A stretch of DNA of 64,000 nucleotides from a virus (Duplodnaviria > Caudoviricetes), in IMG/VR virus record IMGVR_UViG_3300011008_000034, positions 1 through 64,000 of that record, one strand, 5' to 3'. The notes beneath the pieces are model-generated. The model was not told the DNA's origin. It saw only the letters and a program-made list of their open reading frames with translations, and did no database searches. Positions within the stretch are counted from its first letter, which is position 1; every line of letters starts with the position of its first letter. Of this stretch, positions 1,826 to 62,488 are shown piece by piece. Both the position numbers and the translations under genes were made by a program.

Positions 1826-2055
1826 AACTCTTCGAAGGCTTTTATGGTTATTAATCCAACGTTCGCTAATTTACATAATCGTTTATATTTTTATATAATG
1901 GTACCTTTAGGCGTGAAATGCTCCAAGCTTGAAGCTCTACAAAGATTTATGTGAATGTCATGGAGACTCATAAGGAATATGCTTTCAGTATCCTTGTGTG
2001 AGGAACTGTTTTGAAATTCAGTGATTTGCAATCATTTAAAAATTTCAATAAGGAG
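1826..2055 (+). ncRNA. putative omegaRNA of IscB copy 1
   Basis: non-coding leader of iscB; core 1901-2048 (GTACCTT..TCCAAGCT..GCTCTACA..CATGGA..AACTGTT..GAAATTCAGTG..AATCATT) is shared with the leader of the second iscB; ends are approximate. Confidence 0.65.
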
Positions 2056-2061
2056 TTTATT

Positions 2062-3582
2062 ATGAAAATAGTAGCTTATGTATTAGATAAAAATGGAAAA
2101 CCATTAATGCCCTGTCATAGTTATGGCAGAGTAAAAAAATGGTTAAAAAAGAAAGAGACTAAAATTGTTAAATATAAGCCTTTTACTATCCAATTTTTTA
2201 GAGAAACAACACATAATGTAGATAAATGTATATTAGGTATTGACCCTGGTCGTACTAACATTGGATTATGTGTTATTAATGAGAAAGGTGAAGAATTATT
2301 TAGCAGTAATGTTGTTACTAGAAACAAACAGATTCCTAATTTAATGGAAGAACGTTTAGGACATAGACAACTTAGAAGAAAATATAGAAGATTAAGAAGA
2401 AAAAGAAGATTTTTAAAATACAATCCTCAATTAAAAAACAATACTATTATTCGACGATTGCCTCATTATAGTGTTGATGTAGAATTTAAATTAATCAAAA
2501 ATAAACAATCGCGTTTTTGTAATCGCAAGCGTAAAGAAGGATGGCTTACTCCTACTGCTACTCAATTACTTCGTACACATGTAAATCTTGTGAAAAAGAT
2601 TCAGAAGTTTTTACCTATTAGTGAGATTACATTGGAATTAAATTCTTTTGATTTTGCTAAAATGGAAAATCCTAATATTAAAAATTGGGAATATCAAAAA
2701 GGTAAATTGTTTGGATTTAAAAATAAAAATGAATATGTTTCTCATCAACAAGATGGTCATTGCTTGTTTTGCAAACATAACATTGAATATTATCATCATG
2801 TAGTATGGTTATCCAAAGGTGGTAGTGATACTGTTGATAATATTGCAGGAGTTTGTTTAAAACATCATGATTTGATTCATAAAGAACAAAAATGGGATGA
2901 TAAATGTGTTCAAAAACATGGTGGATTATTGAAAAAATATGGAGCTTTATCTGTATTAAATCAGATTAAAAACCAACTTGTAGAACAGTTAAGTAATATA
3001 TTCCCTTTAAATTGTACTACTGGATTTGAAACATATCGAATTCGTAATGATTTAATTTTAAATAAAGACCATTATATTGATGCATGGTGTATTGCTGTTT
3101 CTTCATTAAAGCGATATAATGCACCTATTATTGAAAATAAATATGATATTAAACAATTTAGGCGTCATGATAGACAAATTGTTAATAAAAATTTAGATAG
3201 ATATTATAAGCAAAAAACAAAAACTATTTGTCAAAATAGACGCAAACAATTTGGTCAAAAAAATAATTCTTTAAAAGAATTTTTAGAAAAAAATCCTCAA
3301 TTTACAAATATGATAATAGATGTAAATAAAGTTCGTAAAAATAGTTCTTTTTATAGAATGGTTCATTCTAGTAATATGATTTTCATTTATAAAGGAAGTA
3401 AATCATTTGCTAATCGCCATCGTATTATGCCAGGAGTTGAATTTTTATATCAAGGAAAACGTTATATTGCTGACAAACAATCAAAAGGAAAATATTTTTA
3501 TTCAAATAATTTTGGAGAAAAAAGTATTCCAATTAAAGATTGTATTATTTTGAAGCGTAATGTTGGATTAGTTTTTGTCTAA
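2062..3582 (+). CDS. iscB: IscB RNA-guided endonuclease (IS200/IS605 OMEGA), copy 1
   Basis: PLMP motif, RuvC-I GIDPG, Arg-rich bridge helix, RuvC-II E, HNH (HHVV..SKGGSD...N...C..HH), RuvC-III DHYIDA; ATG 2062 after AAGGAG. Confidence 0.92.
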   Translation: MKIVAYVLDKNGKPLMPCHSYGRVKKWLKKKETKIVKYKPFTIQFFRETTHNVDKCILGIDPGRTNIGLCVINEKGEELFSSNVVTRNKQIPNLMEERLGHRQLRRKYRRLRRKRRFLKYNPQLKNNTIIRRLPHYSVDVEFKLIKNKQSRFCNRKRKEGWLTPTATQLLRTHVNLVKKIQKFLPISEITLELNSFDFAKMENPNIKNWEYQKGKLFGFKNKNEYVSHQQDGHCLFCKHNIEYYHHVVWLSKGGSDTVDNIAGVCLKHHDLIHKEQKWDDKCVQKHGGLLKKYGALSVLNQIKNQLVEQLSNIFPLNCTTGFETYRIRNDLILNKDHYIDAWCIAVSSLKRYNAPIIENKYDIKQFRRHDRQIVNKNLDRYYKQKTKTICQNRRKQFGQKNNSLKEFLEKNPQFTNMIIDVNKVRKNSSFYRMVHSSNMIFIYKGSKSFANRHRIMPGVEFLYQGKRYIADKQSKGKYFYSNNFGEKSIPIKDCIILKRNVGLVFV

Positions 3583-27855: not shown

Positions 27856-28970
27856 TCTTCCACCTCCTTAATGATATTATAAGCTATCTCACTACATTCC
27901 TTTTCTCTAGGCTTTCCTTTAAAATACTGCTTTACTACATCTTGTATTGGTAAGAAATTATTAATCACAATATCATTTTGTACATTAGGAATATCATATT
28001 GAATCTTTAATAGATACTGGACTTTTTTATCATAAGCATACTGAATAATATCCTTTTCATCTATCTTCATTTTATTACTTAGCTTTACTTTGATTCTAAG
28101 AATAGCATCCTTTAAGCCACGTTTTGGTAATTTACTAATAATCATATCTCTAACTTCATTTGATTCTGATTCATTACTACAATCTACTTTTACAGTAATA
28201 AATTTCTGAACATTTAATTTTCGATATTCAAATACATCTATTTTATCAGAGATTTCCATATAAATATATCCTTTATCTTGTTTTTCTTCAGAAAAGTCTA
28301 TCCGGTCACAACTTCCACAATAAAATACTTTTGGTTGTTCAGATAACACTTGATATTTATGTAAATGTCCTAATACTACGACAAGAATTTGTTTTTGATT
28401 AAAAACATCCAAATCAATACAATCATCATCTGATATGATATTCCAGTCATTTAAGAATGCATTCTTAATCGTTAAATGTCCTATTACTATAGTTGGATAA
28501 TCTTTAGAAATATGCTGCATGCAATTAATAATATCTTCTTTTTTATGATGAGTAGGTAAGAATACAAACTGATAAGTAATTCCTTGAAATGTCTTCAATA
28601 CCACTTTAAAAAATCTTGTCTGAATAATATTAGATACTTGTAGCGATTCAAACTGATGTAATCCCGAACAAAAACTATCTTGTTTACTAACATCATGATT
28701 CCCATCTAATACTAAAGTATAAACATTATGTTGTGATAATCGAATAAAAGCTTCATTGACTTTATCAATTAAAGTTGGATTAGGAAGATTATTCTTAAAC
28801 ATATCACCAGCAAATATACATACATCAACTTGTTCATTAATACATGTGTCCACTATCTGATTTAGTATATTTATAGCATTTTTTTCTCTCTGATATAAAC
28901 CTGTAACAGGGTCTACTTTACAGTAATTCTTTTGTCCAATATGTAAATCTGAAAAACATACTACCTTCAT
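27849..28970 (-). CDS. sbcD: SbcD/Mre11-like (gp47-like) nuclease
   Basis: SDLHIG, AGDMF, GNHD, GH, LGHLH. Confidence 0.93.
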   Translation of the reverse strand: MKVVCFSDLHIGQKNYCKVDPVTGLYQREKNAINILNQIVDTCINEQVDVCIFAGDMFKNNLPNPTLIDKVNEAFIRLSQHNVYTLVLDGNHDVSKQDSFCSGLHQFESLQVSNIIQTRFFKVVLKTFQGITYQFVFLPTHHKKEDIINCMQHISKDYPTIVIGHLTIKNAFLNDWNIISDDDCIDLDVFNQKQILVVVLGHLHKYQVLSEQPKVFYCGSCDRIDFSEEKQDKGYIYMEISDKIDVFEYRKLNVQKFITVKVDCSNESESNEVRDMIISKLPKRGLKDAILRIKVKLSNKMKIDEKDIIQYAYDKKVQYLLKIQYDIPNVQNDIVINNFLPIQDVVKQYFKGKPREKECSEIAYNIIKEVEEC

Positions 28971-29506
28971 TTCTTTTTCCTCTTTTCTATAGGTTTTCCA
29001 TCCATTAATATATATGTAACACAGGCAGATATGGAATCTGTTATATCGTTATTTTCTATTCTATCTTGAATTTGGAATAATTCATGTATCTTATCAGATA
29101 CTTCTTTTTTCATTTCATCTCCAGTTTTCTTAGTACCATTTGGCTTTTTAGCTTTAATTCCACCTAATACTTTACTCTTTAAAGTCATAACACTATAGTA
29201 AGTAATCTTTAAATGATGCTTTTCAGCTAGTAATATCATTACACCATGAAACATACTCAATCTTTGTATTGTTTGTCTATTACTACCTACAAATGGAGCT
29301 TCAGCTGAAATTTCAGTCGGTTTGTATAAAGAAATAATCTGTTCTAATTCTTGTTCAAAAAAAACTAACATCTCTCCTATTGTCATTTTCTTTCTAGTAA
29401 TTGTTCCATAGGCTATCAAGTTTTGATTCTGATTCTGATATTGTACAATACTCCATCCTGTAGATTTGGTGGATATATCTAATCCTAAAATAATACAATC
29501 AGTCAT
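28967..29506 (-). CDS. ruvC: RuvC-like Holliday junction resolvase
   Basis: ILGLDIS..STGW, EAPF, K, NDITDS. Confidence 0.85.
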   Translation of the reverse strand: MTDCIILGLDISTKSTGWSIVQYQNQNQNLIAYGTITRKKMTIGEMLVFFEQELEQIISLYKPTEISAEAPFVGSNRQTIQRLSMFHGVMILLAEKHHLKITYYSVMTLKSKVLGGIKAKKPNGTKKTGDEMKKEVSDKIHELFQIQDRIENNDITDSISACVTYILMDGKPIEKRKKK

Positions 29507-29537
29507 GATATCATTCCTCCTAGTTAATTATAGAAAA

Positions 29538-29565
29538 TTGAACTAAAAAGGTTTTCCTTTAAACT
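29538..29565 (+). promoter_or_regulatory. candidate promoter reading into the giant palindrome
   Basis: TTGAAC-16bp-TAAACT; the predicted +1 (~29571) coincides with the start of the left arm. Confidence 0.4.
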
Positions 29566-29569
29566 GTGC

Positions 29570-31129
29570 TCGGCAGTTCCATTCAGGAAGTAGCCGCACA
29601 GCTAAAGCTGATGTGCCTACGTTCCTTCATTCCACTACCTCACCTTTTCACAGTCCTCCATTCCACTACAGCATTCCGCTGAAGCGTAAGTGCTTCCGTT
29701 CCATTCCAGACTGTTCAAACATTTGAAACAATAGAACAAATGAATTATTTTTTATGACATTCAGAGAGCGTTCTATAGCTTACTAATTTTCTTAAGACTA
29801 CTAAAGTTAATCTAGTTCTTAAAACCCTTAGTAAAACTAAAGGAATTAAGTTCTCTACTTAAAATAAATTTTCTACTTAAAATAAATTCTCTTAGTTCAC
29901 TGAGGCAAAACGCCTTCCATTTTCCTTTTCATTATCCAGATTAATAAGACTGACTGTTTAAATTTTGTTGCTGATGGTGCGTACTGACCAACATCAATCC
30001 TTACCAACAAAGGAACGATGATATGTTTTTGATGTATGAAACCGAGGAAAAAACCTTAAAAAATAAATTTTAGAATATTCTTTTAAATGAAAATTCAAAA
30101 TATTCTTTATAATTACATTAAACTATTCAATATTTTATCCGAAAAATCGTCTTGACTCAGCAATCATAAGGAATGTACACATCATGACTATCATTATGCC
30201 TTTACGGATAAGGATTGATGATGTGTAAATGATGTATGATAGGTGTGTTCTTTCATGAAAGCATGTTTTAAATGACTAAATAGATATTTGTTTGTAAAAC
30301 ACATGTAATGAAATAAGAAAAAAGCTTTTCAAATGTTATTGGCAATGAATTCTAAGGCATAATACATAAAAAAGAAGCAAATCATATTCCTGGAATTATA
30401 GAACGTATAATGCATAAAAATTGCGGCTTATAAAAAGCAATCAAATAAGAACATACACACAATATCTGTCATGGAACCTTATTGGTAAAGGTATCATAAC
30501 ATTTTTTTATGTAAGATGTATGTGCTTTCTGAGTCAAGACACTTTTTTGTCATTAAAAATGGATTGTAAATCAAAGTTATTAGAATATTTTTAATAGTAA
30601 GATTCTTAATTTTCTTAAACTTTCATTTTTAGGACTTTTTCCTTTGTCATTTACATTAAAAAATCATTGTCAGTCCTTTACGGATAAGGAACGATGAAGG
30701 TGACGTTGGAGAGCTAGAAATAAAATTTAAACAGTCAGTCTTATTAGTCTGGATGATGAAAGGAAAAACATTAAGGCGCTTGGCTACAGTAAACTTACTT
30801 TAAGTAGATAACTAGTTTTCTGTAGAGAACTTAGTTTAAGTAGAGAACTAAGAAAACTTAGTTCCTTTAGTTTTAAAGTAGATTTAGTAGTCTTAAGAAA
30901 TTTAGCAAGCTATAGAGCGTTCCCTGAATGTCATAAAAAATAATTCATTTGTTTTTCGTTCTAATTCTTTGAACAGACTGAAATTCCACTGAAGGATGTC
31001 TGTGTTTCGTTACTTGTAACGGACACAGCATACTGAAGAGGAATTGAAGGATGTGAAAAGTGAAGCAATGGAATGAAAGGATGTCTGCACTTCGTTTACG
31101 AATGCAGCAGACTGGAATGGAATTGCTGA
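29570..31129. repeat. ~1.56 kb non-coding imperfect inverted repeat centred at ~30345 (candidate rod-like ncRNA or cruciform/origin)
   Basis: 29741-29805 vs 30883-30947 (60/65 WC pairs); 29927-29966 vs 30722-30761 (38/40); 30149-30160 vs 30529-30540 (12/12); outer CGGCAGTTCCATTC vs GAATGGAATTGCTG. Confidence 0.92.
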
Positions 31130-31138
31130 ACATAATAG

Positions 31139-31174
31139 AAAAGAGACTAACTGATAAAAAGCTAGTCTCTTTTT
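31139..31174. terminator. bidirectional intrinsic terminator at the right edge of the palindrome
   Basis: AAAAGAGACTA...TAGTCTCTTTTT. Confidence 0.7.
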
Positions 31175-31177
31175 GTA

Positions 31178-32002
31178 TTAGAAAGTCATTTTACAGATTA
31201 AAGATTTGTCAGGAGAATAAATTGAAGCTGAGAAGTCAAATGATAAAGTATGATAATCTATCATTTTAGGATATACAGTATCTACTTCTTCTAAGTGTTC
31301 TCCTTGAGATAATAACATAATAATAGGAAGTATTCCTATAGATTCTCCAGGATAAGTTTCTTGAGGAGTAAATACTTGATTTTTATCAAAATCCACTTTA
31401 ATTGTATAGTAATCAATATCTTCAGTTTGTTGTACTTCTCCTAGATTAGTAAGATTAAAGCAGATTGTTTTTACTAATCCTTTTTCTGGTACTGTAATTT
31501 CATATAGATTATCAATATTAGACAAAGTAATATCGCAATCACTAAGATACGTTAAGCCGGGTTTGTGGTGCCATTTAATGTGACTTGAAGTATCTTCAAT
31601 TAGATTTTTTATTTTTTCTTCTATAGATTTAGCATATTCATGTAAGTCTATATTTCTAGAATAATCAATTAATTGTTGAGATAATCCATCTAATACAGTT
31701 GGTAAGAAAGATACTAATTCTTTCCGGCATATAATGCCCTCTCCTTGTAATGGGGACAGGTCATGGTCTGCAGTAATGGTAATTATATCATCACCAAGTA
31801 GAGAGGTATTAGACACCACATAAGGAGCTATTTCTTCATTTCCATAAATATCATTACTATTAATAAACACTACATCATTTACAGCAATATCACTCATAGT
31901 ATAATGAAGATATCCATCAAAGAATGTAATCTTAATATTAAATGATTGAGGAGAATTTTGTGTTACTGATAATACTTGAATTTTACCATTAAATAATTTC
32001 AT
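31178..32002 (-). CDS. probable structural (tail-associated) protein
   Basis: follows the tail-fibre-like gene, GGAGG RBS, acidic and beta-rich. Confidence 0.55.
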   Translation of the reverse strand: MKLFNGKIQVLSVTQNSPQSFNIKITFFDGYLHYTMSDIAVNDVVFINSNDIYGNEEIAPYVVSNTSLLGDDIITITADHDLSPLQGEGIICRKELVSFLPTVLDGLSQQLIDYSRNIDLHEYAKSIEEKIKNLIEDTSSHIKWHHKPGLTYLSDCDITLSNIDNLYEITVPEKGLVKTICFNLTNLGEVQQTEDIDYYTIKVDFDKNQVFTPQETYPGESIGILPIIMLLSQGEHLEEVDTVYPKMIDYHTLSFDFSASIYSPDKSLICKMTF

Positions 32003-35340: not shown

Positions 35341-35541
35341 GTGGTGATTTTTATGAAGAAGGTGATTAGATATTTCCCAGGTATTCAACTGGAATTAAAT
35401 GAACAACAATTTATTATTAAAAAATATAATGAGGTTGATTGTTGGGATTTAAAAGATAATTTATTTTGTACTGTAATCGCCTCGAGTATTTTTGGAAAAA
35501 TTTTTGAATCTATGGTGAAAGAGATGTGTGAATGTGATTAG
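35341..35541 (+). CDS. small hypothetical protein
   Basis: ORF with RBS, overlaps the nrdG start. Confidence 0.55.
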   Translation: MVIFMKKVIRYFPGIQLELNEQQFIIKKYNEVDCWDLKDNLFCTVIASSIFGKIFESMVKEMCECD

Positions 35542-36013
35542 ATTTGCTGGTATAGAAGAAGAATCAACTGTTGATGGTGAGGGAATTCGTTTTGTATTAT
35601 TTTGTCAAGGATGCCCTCACCATTGTAAAGGATGCCATAATCCATCTACTTGGAGTTATGATAAAGGTGACTTTATATCTCCGGAAGAAATTTTATATAA
35701 AATGAAACAAAATGAATTATTAGACGGAATTACTTTGTCAGGTGGAGAACCTTTTGAGCAAGTTGATGAATTGTTACCATTACTAAAATTAATAACTCCT
35801 GAATATAATGTTTGGTCTTACTCAGGATATATATATGAAGATTTAATACAAGATACTAATAAAAAGAAATTATTGCAATACATTGATTATTTGATTGATG
35901 GTCCTTATATAGAAGATTTAAGAGATTTGACGTTACAATTTCGTGGGTCATTAAATCAAAGAATTATAAATGTACAAGAATCATTAAAACAAAATAAAGT
36001 CATGTTAAAATAG
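35528..36013 (+). CDS. nrdG: anaerobic ribonucleotide reductase activating protein (radical SAM)
   Basis: VDGEGIR, CPHHCKGCHN, TLSGGEPF, DG.Y, FRGS.NQR. Confidence 0.93.
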   Translation: MNVIRFAGIEEESTVDGEGIRFVLFCQGCPHHCKGCHNPSTWSYDKGDFISPEEILYKMKQNELLDGITLSGGEPFEQVDELLPLLKLITPEYNVWSYSGYIYEDLIQDTNKKKLLQYIDYLIDGPYIEDLRDLTLQFRGSLNQRIINVQESLKQNKVMLK

Positions 36014-36040
36014 ACCGAGAATATTCTCGGTCTATTTTTT
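36008..36040. terminator. bidirectional terminator
   Basis: AAATAGACCGAGAATATTCTCGGTCTATTT perfect palindrome. Confidence 0.75.
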
Positions 36041-60413: not shown

Positions 60414-60872
60414 TTATGTTTTATTTTTTTGAGTTTTCATAGTTTTATATTTTTCATCATTAATTTTTATGCATTTATCATTCGTTACATTTTTATTGAA
60501 ATAAACTTGAAAATTTTTATTATATTCAAATGACGAGGTTATATAAAATGTAATTTTTACAGTATTCACATCAACGATTGTTAATTTTATGTCATTTTTC
60601 TTTGCATATTCAACTCCTTCATATAAAATAACAAAATCATATTTGTTCGTTCCATCATTTAATTTTCTTTTATTAATAAAATGTACTACTTTATCATTAA
60701 TGTAGTCAATTGCATTTGTAAAAAAGAAAAAATACATTTTATCATTATCTTCATTTAAAATTGAATATATACAAATAGAATTTTTATGTTTTGTTAATTT
60801 TAAAAAAGATAACATAATTTTATCAGCAATACTTTGTAATCTCATTTCTTCAATGTTATATATAATAATCAC
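60414..60872 (-). CDS. orphan module gene B, family B2
   Basis: paralog of 57190..57666; iscB occupies the A position. Confidence 0.75.
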   Translation of the reverse strand: MIIIYNIEEMRLQSIADKIMLSFLKLTKHKNSICIYSILNEDNDKMYFFFFTNAIDYINDKVVHFINKRKLNDGTNKYDFVILYEGVEYAKKNDIKLTIVDVNTVKITFYITSSFEYNKNFQVYFNKNVTNDKCIKINDEKYKTMKTQKNKT

Positions 60873-61002: not shown

Positions 61003-61036
61003 CTTCGTTCTGATTCGGAACTAGATGTGTCTTTTA
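61003..61036. repeat. 34-bp direct repeat flanking iscB copy 2 (downstream copy)
   Basis: 32/34 identical to 62688..62721; related to 58260..58292. Confidence 0.9.
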
Positions 61037-62488
61037 TTCAAAAACTAATCCTTGATTTCTTTTTAAGATTTTACATTCTTTTAGTTTTGCAAATCCTTTT
61101 TCAAAAGATTTACAAATAAGATATTTTTCGTGACTTGTTCCTTCACATATATATCTTTTTTGTTTATGTAAAAATATTGCTCCTGGATATAATCGTTCCA
61201 TTTGTTTATAAATATGTCTTCCTTGAACAACAATCAAATTACTTACATTTTGAGGATATTTTTTTGCATATTCTTCTAAAGAATCTACATTCTGTGCAGT
61301 CTTTTTATGACGATTTTTACACACTATTTTTGTTTTATAATAATATAGTCTATCAATTATTCGATAACACATTTTACGATCATGTCTTCTAAATTGCCTA
61401 ATATTATACTTATTTTCAATAATAGGTTGTTTATATTGATTTAAAGACGAAACAGCAATACACCAAGCATCAATATAGTGATCCTTATTTAATTCTAAAT
61501 CATTTCTAATTTGATAAGTTTCATAACCAGTTGTACAATTCAAGGGTAAGATTTGACTTAATTGTTCTATTAATTGATTTTTAATTTGATTTAATACAGA
61601 TAATGCACCATATTTTTTTAAAAGTCCACCATGTTTTTGAACACATTTTTTATCCCATTTTTTATCTTTATGAATTAAATCATGATGTTTAAAACATACA
61701 CCAGCAATATTATCTACAGTATCATTACCACCACGACTTCTCCAAATAACGTGATGATAATGTTCAATACCATGCTTACAAAATAAGCATTTTCCTTCTT
61801 GTTGATGATAAACATATTCTTCTTTATTTTTAAATCCAAATAACTTACCTTTAGCGTATTCCCAATTTTTAATATTAGGATTTTCCAATTTAGCTATATC
61901 AAATGAATTAATTTCTAATACCAATTCGGATATAGGTAAGAATTTTTGAATCTTTTTTACAAGATTAATATGCGTACGTAATAACTGAGTCGCAGTAGGA
62001 GTTAACCATCCTTCTTTCCGCTTACGATTACAAAAACGTGATTGTTTATTTTTGATTAATTTGAATTTTACATCAACGCTATAATGAGGTAACCGTCTAA
62101 TAATTACTCTATCTTTTTGCAAAGGAAAATATTTTTTAAATCTACGAATACGTTTTTTTCTTCTATAAAAACGTCTCATATATCTACTTGCACGACGATC
62201 GTCCATTAATGTTTTTATTTTTTTATTTCTAGTAGTTACATTACTAGAAAACAATTCATTACTTTTTTCATCAACAACACATAATCCAATATTTGTTCTT
62301 CCAGGATCTATTCCTAAGATACATTTTTGTGTTTTAGTATCAGATGTATCTCTAAGAAATTGAATGGTAAATGGTTTATATTCAACTATTTTTACCTCTT
62401 TTCTTTTTAACCATCTTTTTACTCTGCCATAACTATGACATGGCATTAATGGTTTTCCATTCTTATCTAAAACATAAATGCAATTCAT
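61034..62488 (-). CDS. iscB: IscB RNA-guided endonuclease, copy 2
   Basis: PLMP, GIDPG, bridge helix, HNH, DHYIDA; highly similar to copy 1 except at the C-terminus. Confidence 0.92.
   Translation of the reverse strand: MNCIYVLDKNGKPLMPCHSYGRVKRWLKRKEVKIVEYKPFTIQFLRDTSDTKTQKCILGIDPGRTNIGLCVVDEKSNELFSSNVTTRNKKIKTLMDDRRASRYMRRFYRRKKRIRRFKKYFPLQKDRVIIRRLPHYSVDVKFKLIKNKQSRFCNRKRKEGWLTPTATQLLRTHINLVKKIQKFLPISELVLEINSFDIAKLENPNIKNWEYAKGKLFGFKNKEEYVYHQQEGKCLFCKHGIEHYHHVIWRSRGGNDTVDNIAGVCFKHHDLIHKDKKWDKKCVQKHGGLLKKYGALSVLNQIKNQLIEQLSQILPLNCTTGYETYQIRNDLELNKDHYIDAWCIAVSSLNQYKQPIIENKYNIRQFRRHDRKMCYRIIDRLYYYKTKIVCKNRHKKTAQNVDSLEEYAKKYPQNVSNLIVVQGRHIYKQMERLYPGAIFLHKQKRYICEGTSHEKYLICKSFEKGFAKLKECKILKRNQGLVFE

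Follow-up and report, generated by a model that had tools for sequence, protein, structure and literature searches.

In the iteron-type replication origins of the plasmids P1, F, RK2 and pSC101, direct repeats of 17-22 bp form arrays beside an AT-rich tract and DnaA-box-like sites, within a long gene-free region near replication genes. A different kind of multicopy element occurs in baculoviruses, where the homologous regions (hrs) are dispersed, non-coding imperfect-palindrome repeat regions, several per large viral genome, built from units of about 70 bp that contain a 30-bp palindrome bound by IE-1. The element analyzed here, called E1, resembles both in some respects. It lies between ruvC and a gene for a 274-aa protein in a 64,000-nt stretch of DNA (the window), which is the first 64 kb of the 177,647-bp IMG/VR virus record IMGVR_UViG_3300011008_000034 (G000; Caudoviricetes). 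A sequence-only reading of the window had described E1 as an imperfect palindrome that might encode a giant rod-shaped RNA, with a structured origin or a single-stranded DNA structure as the fallback. Comparison with related DNA leads to another picture: E1 consists of two diverged copies, arranged head to head, of a modular, non-coding, dispersed repeat, and is not one folded molecule. The fallback has become the preferred reading, namely that E1 would be an iteron-type, origin-like or hr-like DNA element, a tentative assignment from sequence features to which we would give a probability of roughly 0.38.

The gene-free tract runs from 29507 to 31177 (1671 nt) and contains no open reading frame (ORF) of at least 80 aa, the largest being 57, 62 and 69 aa. 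Small ORFs within the arms were considered as coding sequences and rejected; their reading frames differ between copies of the repeat, and the indels are not multiples of three. As originally described, the tract folds back on itself about position ~30345; among its paired blocks are one of 80 nt at 89%, another of 53 nt at 89% and a third of 25 nt at 92%. The inverted match of the tract to itself has a BLAST E value of 1e-48, and when the arms are aligned globally, 530 of the 735 columns are Watson-Crick pairs (72%) and the coordinate sums lie at 60687-60707. The earlier argument that the palindrome is no assembly artefact is now firmly established, because the two arms share only about 70% of their sequence, the right arm and its flank recur at 93% identity in an independent metagenome contig (L132), and a relative (L134) was assembled straight across a complete homologous palindrome. 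The failure to recognize an RNA family in E1 was likewise borne out: an Rfam covariance search of the whole window was blank, and a search at E values up to 5 gave just two noise matches, of 17 bits versus gathering scores of 48-53. A search of the GenBank phage collection with E1 DNA gave no match.

Relatives of E1 were detected with a 20-mer, AATAAGACTGACTGTTTAAA, which is identical in both arms and belongs to a segment designated block B. This probe led to ten metagenome contigs (L126-L135) that are 70-93% identical to parts of E1 and that are short, often ending within the element. An alignment of 12 arm copies (A1) establishes each arm as a modular unit of about 500 nt, with the modules in a shared order: outer domain, block A, iterons, small GC hairpin, block B, H hairpin and AT-rich tract. 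Block B, a box of 40 nt, varies little or not at all among the 12 aligned copies, which are otherwise 59-80% alike; this conservation is in part a matter of ascertainment, since 20 of the 40 nt are the probe itself, though the flanking 20 nt are equally conserved. The possibility that block B is a sigma-70 promoter was considered and rejected, the left copy reading TAAACA-18-GATAAT on the minus strand (9/12) and most aligned copies having GATGAT, a poorer match. Modules are missing or shortened in various copies, and the outer domain is absent altogether from L134 and L019. The central region of E1 is likewise variable, its position being deleted in L134 and occupied by a small gene cassette in L126.

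Units are also found outside palindromes. Contig L130 contains two partial units in direct orientation, 1175 nt apart, one of which retains only the block B core and the H hairpin; next to each comes a TTTACA-17-TATAAT promoter, which precedes a ribosome-binding site and a gene. The unit of L126 likewise has this promoter module after it, and then two small ORFs and a terminator. Contigs L133 and L128, which come from two samples and were merged through an overlap at 94%, would together have two units in direct orientation, separated by about 1.9 kb that contains three small genes.

The two arms of E1 have different affinities within this family. The left arm is 69.6% identical to the right arm and 78-80% identical to L127, L130 and L133; the right arm is 91.5% identical to L132 and 75.5% to L131, which in turn forms a pair with L126 at 90.3%. 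In a maximum-likelihood tree, the left arm groups with L127 and L130 (support 95/98) and the right arm with L132, inside a clade of support 93/97, whereas the two arms of L134 are sisters (100/99). This difference implies that head-to-head pairs arose, or were kept, in two different ways. A comparison of E1 with L134 over 319 common columns revealed 12 compensated changes and 117 columns changed on one side only, and both arms had changed in 42 columns versus 34 expected by chance. The excess of one-sided over compensated changes argues that pairing between the arms is evidently not under selection.

These results bear directly on the proposed transcript, a plus-strand RNA of about 1.6 kb that would be rod-shaped and largely double-stranded and might act as a decoy, scaffold or packaged RNA. 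Viroids, hepatitis delta virus (HDV) and Obelisks are circular RNA replicons in which pairing is conserved. E1 resembles them in that a rod of about 1-1.6 kb is predicted, with long-range contacts in 345 of its 558 pairs, but it is phage DNA, with neither strand bias nor inter-arm compensation. The excess of G-T mismatches on the plus strand, noticed earlier in blocks checked by hand, disappears in the full count, which gives 46 G-T versus 43 A-C; the corresponding numbers are 4 versus 2 in the E1 blocks of at least 80% identity, and 9 versus 12 in the homologous palindrome of L134. The predicted minimum free energy is slightly better for the minus strand (-546.9 kcal/mol) than for the plus strand (-538.1 kcal/mol). 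A promoter had been proposed at the left end, but this site agrees with the consensus at no more than 8 of 12 positions, and the E1 region has no surplus of promoter-like sites (7, versus 10.2 +/- 3.0 from shuffles). The terminator reported beyond the right arm is real, but its assignment to a plus-strand RNA is unnecessary: the scan calls it on the minus strand, it begins 5 nt past the stop codon that ends the 274-aa gene, which is itself on the minus strand, and in a relative (L007) the orthologous gene is followed by a hairpin terminator of its own at the equivalent position. The terminator may be active both ways, and no plus-strand RNA is required to explain it. With no strand bias, a weak promoter, arms from different clades, units that occur alone elsewhere and uncompensated arm pairing, the single-rod reading is unsupported. 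Local hairpins that are kept by covariation (see below) would also vie with the rod for the outer 160 nt, and we regard such an RNA as highly improbable.

Selection within the unit was assessed by comparing the right arm with its ortholog in L132, using the third codon positions of the adjacent gene (89.4% identity) as a near-neutral yardstick. The AT-rich tract with hairpin H4 (89.1%), block A (90.2%) and the iterons (90.8%, apart from the gain or loss of one 18-nt unit) are close to this value, while the outer domain is 95.6% identical and block B is identical at 53 of 53 positions, including 33 of 33 outside the 20-mer probe. By this measure, block B and the outer domain are evidently under purifying selection. 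In the segment from 30769 to 30873, the window has exactly one 18-nt iteron more than L132, a copy-number change by unit slippage.

The outer domain, which makes up the outer ~160 nt of each arm that has it, consists of two long local hairpins whose stems are wholly different between copies but keep their pairing. In an alignment (A2) of six sequences, which fall in two or three clades and represent few independent events, 89.2% of cells are paired, with 13 double-changed pairs (0/500 shuffles), and slid controls pair at 31-48%; the opposite strand (A3) gives 86.4% paired and 9 double-changed pairs (2/500 shuffles). On the G-rich strand, the folding z-scores match or surpass those of the other strand in 7 of 7 copies (mean -4.6 vs -3.3), with values of -3.6 to -3.7 for the left outer domain of E1. 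The G-rich strand contains symmetric GGA/GGA and GA/GA internal loops, the density of GGA is 46-62 per kb in the outer domain versus 8-13 per kb in the genome, and the G-rich strands read outwards in both arms. The covariation of these hairpins suggests that part of each unit acts single-stranded, in a transcript or in unwound DNA. The H hairpins (CCTT-N7-AAGG), by contrast, keep their sequence rather than covary. Their loop consensus, TTATC[CA][AG]CA, is DnaA-box-like, and two relatives have an exact DnaA box.

The record contains one other gene-free gap of like size in its 177 kb (G000 128464-130069, 1606 nt), and within it lies a non-coding imperfect palindrome of 1.25 kb, called E2 (G000 128545-129792, outside the window; L004 881-2128). 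The outer 21-nt arms of E2 are 100% complementary, and the element includes a 242-nt internal duplication, 19-nt iterons in 4.4 copies with the same TCTACTTAAA core as those of E1, five CATGC hairpins, and the palindromic sites TTATCCGGATAA and TTATCCAGATAA. The motifs TCTACTTAAA, ATAGAGCG and AGTTCACTG are common to E1 and E2 and occur nowhere else in the 177 kb, and from this content E2 appears to be a distant relative of E1. A nhmmer search of the 177 kb with the 12-copy profile recovered no unit besides the two E1 arms, E2 scoring just E = 0.23. E2 is located upstream of the gene for an NAD-dependent ligase, beyond which, at a distance of two genes, a DEAH helicase is encoded; an AEP-like gene beside E2 had no Pfam support.

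The invariant box, the iteron arrays with their change in copy number and the lack of strand asymmetry all suggest that E1 acts as duplex DNA, with modules for protein binding and tracts that can melt; such symmetry between the strands over the palindrome is what would be expected of an element of this kind. We infer protein binding, melting and replication initiation as the steps in which it might take part. In the most likely scheme, the iterons, block B and the hairpin sites would be targets for phage or host proteins, and melting would take place in the AT-rich tracts. The symmetric layout would then allow two forks, or two outward G-rich primer transcripts (compare T4 oriF and oriG), to depart in opposite directions, with the covarying outer hairpins acting single-stranded in unwound DNA or in a transcript. 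The tandem repeats of E1 (18 nt, at 29847-29892 and 30792-30849) and of E2 (19 nt) fall within the 17-22-bp range of plasmid iterons, and AT-rich tracts (15% GC at 30050-30149, 20% GC at 30550-30649) adjoin them, one on either side of the E1 center. An origin is also supported by the location of E1 in a ruvC-mre11-rad50-dnaE neighborhood and by the recurrence of head-to-head pairing in E1 and L134. Unlike the iteron-type origins, E1 has no recognized initiator gene, and its two modules face each other over 1.6 kb; the covarying hairpin domain, the invariant 40-nt box and the presence of several members per phage lineage are further differences. With the baculovirus hrs, E1 may share its nature as a dispersed imperfect palindrome, E1 and the distantly related E2 being found within 36% of a genome and further units in related contigs; the E1 units are longer (~500 nt), modular and far more diverged, with no sequence relation to hrs.

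Viral origins with some of these properties have been described. Phage T4 has several origins, which combine a promoter with an AT-rich unwinding element and involve R-loops as primers, and oriE has iterons (PMC3016281). The origin of the PLE (phage-inducible chromosomal island-like element) satellite lies within a 2.7-kb repeat-rich non-coding region (10.1101/639039). The E1 phage resembles T4, with its oriF and oriG, in having T4-like recombination genes and AT-rich unwinding tracts, and the outward G-rich strands of E1 could form stable RNA-DNA hybrids. However, the minimal T4 origins are about 100 bp long with a defined MotA promoter (PMC3016281), and no promoter was found in E1.

Several observations weigh against an origin. 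E1 is absent from the same site in relatives with RuvC identities of 65% (L007) and 50% (phage G), and it is therefore not a conserved core origin: L007 has orthologs of the 821-aa and 274-aa genes and then ruvC after just 54 nt, and there is no gap at the equivalent site in L008 or phage G. The cumulative GC skew over the 177-kb contig tracks gene direction, with no inflection at E1 or E2, and as a guide to a start site it is uninformative. No Rep- or initiator-like family was found among the neighbors of E1 and E2, although several of these match nothing and a new initiator is possible. The likeness to a DnaA box is weak in E1 itself (2-3 mismatches), and the outer domain is optional, given its absence from L134 and L019. 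Finally, units also occur upstream of ordinary small genes with their own TTTACA-17-TATAAT promoters, and a regulatory or recombinational repeat would fit this arrangement equally well.

Such a repeat has precedents. In T4-type phages, repeated intergenic cassettes called PeSL (promoter early stem-loop) flank small ORFan genes and mediate their shuffling (PMC2839356), and the pithovirus M1 and M2 repeats, putative MITEs (miniature transposable elements with inverted repeats), are non-coding palindromic repeats in a very large viral genome (PMC10664404). By analogy, E1 might be a recombination by-product of dispersed regulatory or selfish repeats, whose units would be mobile cassettes or MITE-like elements that reshuffle small genes; it would be a remnant of two units that were joined head to head with the loss of intervening genes, and the palindrome would have no function. 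Direct-orientation units do flank small ORFan cassettes (L130; L133 with L128), PeSL-like promoter repeats adjoin the units in L130 and L126, and the promoter-ORF-terminator cassette of L126 is flanked by a 30-nt direct repeat. The truncation or loss of different modules in different copies, the fact that each relative examined is different at the site upstream of ruvC, and the nearly neutral rate of change (89-91% identity to L132) of the AT-rich tract, iterons and block A are all consistent with this account. However, PeSL are short (promoter plus stem-loop terminator), E1 is ten times larger and lacks the strong sigma-70 promoter that defines such cassettes (PMC2839356), the TTTACA-17-TATAAT module beside the L130 and L126 units having no counterpart in E1. 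M1 and M2 are about 140 nt long, numerous, and have possible target-site duplications (PMC10664404). E1 has no sharp ends and no direct repeat of at least 5 nt at its ends (L134 has only a low-complexity TTAAAA), and its copies are few and highly diverged: there are only two arms in 177 kb, and apart from the right arm with L132 and L131 with L126, copies are 59-80% alike. A divergence of 20-40% argues against recent spread, purifying selection on block B and the outer domain argues against an inert remnant, and 1.6 kb of useless DNA would be unusual for a phage genome. We consider a mere by-product unlikely, though far from implausible.

Another alternative is that the outer domains are a pair of genes for non-coding RNA (ncRNA), each ~160-nt GGA-rich twin-hairpin domain being read from its G-rich strand. 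The left RNA would be transcribed from the minus strand and run into ruvC as its leader, and the right RNA would be transcribed from the plus strand and end at the terminator at 31139-31173; they might serve as protein sponges or regulatory leaders, the palindrome being a by-product of the inverted arrangement. This possibility would account for the pairing kept by stems of unlike sequence, the conserved purine-rich internal loops and high GGA density, the equal or better z-scores of the G-rich strand, the conservation of the outer domain above neutral sites, and the strong terminator after the right-arm domain. On the other hand, the covariation backs both strands equally and no promoter is conserved in either direction, the -35 not being kept and promoter-like sites not being enriched. 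A hairpin with a T-run follows the domain in just 3 of 7 copies, and two of these are the terminator of a convergent gene. The domain is missing from L134 and L019 though the rest of the unit stays, Rfam gave no match even at E = 5, and the iterons and the invariant block B are left unexplained. We consider the ncRNA pair unlikely, to about the same degree as a by-product. A role for the palindrome as DNA secondary structure is far less probable. Genes for a Holliday-junction resolvase and an SbcCD-like nuclease directly adjoin E1, and a cruciform or snap-back hairpin could be a substrate or loading site for RuvC and Mre11-Rad50, for example in starting recombination-dependent replication. With 72% complementarity and many bulges, extrusion is unlikely; in addition, the inter-arm pairing is not maintained, relatives have the same nuclease genes without a palindrome, and E2 adjoins other genes.

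We know of no information on how phages of half a megabase start replication or organize their non-coding DNA. The appealing but unsupported idea of a giant RNA is replaced here by a concrete and testable anatomy: a 40-nt box, iterons and a covarying hairpin domain. If these elements are origins or enhancer-like platforms, they provide an entry point to replication control in uncultured megaphages, and the 40-nt box can be used as a metagenome probe for the lineage. Transcription of the outer domain would make it a new structured RNA, and even if neither possibility proves correct, the family still records repeat-mediated gene shuffling in huge phages. A bolder view, rather unlikely, is that megaphages of the phage-G lineage carry undescribed large modular non-coding elements that are symmetric bidirectional origins combining iterons with R-loops and fired by structured G-rich transcripts reading outward, or that the GGA-rich twin hairpins represent a new class of phage-encoded structured RNA, for example a sponge for a GGA-binding regulator of the host. 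The parts of E1 are listed in Table 1.

Table 1. Features of E1 and its borders (positions in the window; strand given where one applies)
Feature	Position	Strand	Remarks
TATAAT -10 box directly upstream of the ruvC ribosome-binding site	29527..29532	-	read from sequence; likewise in L019 and L006
Promoter TTGAAC-16-TAAACT of the earlier proposal	29538..29565	+	weak, 8/12; -35 not kept in other copies
Left outer domain, 45-49% GC, plus strand C-rich, 10 TCC (GGA on minus)	29565..29725		two long local hairpins; covariation 13 pairs, 0/500 shuffles
E1, whole imperfect palindrome	29568..31136		two head-to-head units round a poorly paired center; center ~30345
Block A, left copy, contains ACATTCAGAGAGCGTTCTATAGCTTACTAA	29733..29815		89% complementary to 30874-30953
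Left iteron array, 18-nt period, core TCTACTTAAA	29816..29900		Tandem Repeats Finder (TRF) 29847-29892, 2.6 copies, 89%
Small GC hairpin, then T-rich run	29902..29916	+	weakly terminator-like; poorly conserved among copies
Block B, left copy, 40-nt box TTTCATYATCCAGAYTAATAAGACTGACTGTTTAAATTTT	29927..29966		alignment of 12 copies
Side hairpin H1 (CATC..CCTT-N7-AAGG..GATG)	29989..30023		
Left AT-rich tract, 15% GC	30050..30149		
Side hairpin H2	30189..30223		
Central region, poorly paired (innermost block 35/69)	30224..30464		no ORF, no strong promoter
Side hairpin H3	30465..30499		
Right AT-rich tract, 20% GC	30550..30649		
Side hairpin H4	30663..30697		
Block B, right copy, inverted	30722..30761		53/53 identical to the L132 ortholog
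Right iteron array, 18-nt period, 3.2 copies	30792..30849		one 18-nt unit more than in L132
Block A, right copy, inverted	30874..30955		
Right outer domain, plus strand G-rich, 8 GGA	30965..31138		two long local hairpins; 95.6% to L132
Intrinsic terminator of the 274-aa gene	31139..31173	-	A-run and T-run on flanks, possibly bidirectional

The 177.6-kb record has a GC content of 27% and a CheckV completeness of 36%. Relatives of its RuvC are found on contigs of 420-560 kb, including Bacillus phage G (50% identity), and by this relationship the source genome is evidently that of a phage-G-like megaphage. E1 is flanked by ruvC (28967-29506, minus) and the 274-aa gene (31178-32002, minus); genes for an Mre11-like phosphoesterase and a Rad50-like ATPase follow downstream of ruvC, and a DnaE fragment is close by. 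Non-coding, repeat-rich DNA upstream of ruvC is also present in the closer relatives L006 (RuvC 82%) and L019 (RuvC 80%), whose ruvC leaders share the motif vocabulary of E1 (TTTACTTAAAR and CTTAAG/CTTAG repeats). These leaders (L019:1-339 and L006:1950-2336) are shorter than E1, the L019 contig breaking within the repeats, and that of L006 includes three direct repeats of about 20 nt (CAAGAACATGGYGAAT...).

Other searches for related loci added little. The 274-aa neighbor had no tblastn match among phages, scans for related loci with the 274-aa and Mre11-like proteins found none, and a separate scan with RuvC gave one distant locus (L005), which has no palindrome. Pattern scans of IMG/VR were unproductive with the block B 20-mer, gave 7 chance matches in phages of 53-55% GC with CTCTTAGT..CA.TG, and more than 105 chance matches, none related, with an iteron pair; a scan of GTDB genomes with the 20-mer gave one chance match, in a metagenome-assembled genome (MAG) of 61% GC. 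Pfam scans of the ORFs that flank units in the related contigs revealed only ORFans.

Several minor features of these contigs and of the record deserve mention. The cassette in L126 (268-1075) comprises a promoter, ORFs of 37 and 72 aa and a terminator between direct repeats of about 30 nt (GAAAACATAAGAGTCATACATCATC...); the overlap of this repeat with an H-type hairpin suggests that insertion or recombination took place there. In L130 (450-4420), a PeSL-like repeat of about 85-140 nt with TTTACA-17-TATAAT occurs five or six times upstream of small ORFan genes, and it is copied also in L126, L127, L131 and L135. Contig L129 has an ORF fragment resembling the N-terminus of IscB (6-200) about 1 kb from its unit copy, and this fragment is similar to the window's IscB paralogs (2011-3582 and 61034-62488). 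Within the window, a perfect 32-nt palindrome (36007-36038) overlaps the 3' end of a radical-SAM activase-like gene (35528-36013) and is probably a terminator. Elsewhere in the record, a 998-nt gap with no ORF of at least 80 aa (L011, G000 93239-94236) contains a 54-nt palindrome at 94077-94130, and the contig end (L010, G000 176909-177443) has a self-inverse stretch of 566 nt (66%) that overlaps two minus-strand ORFs.

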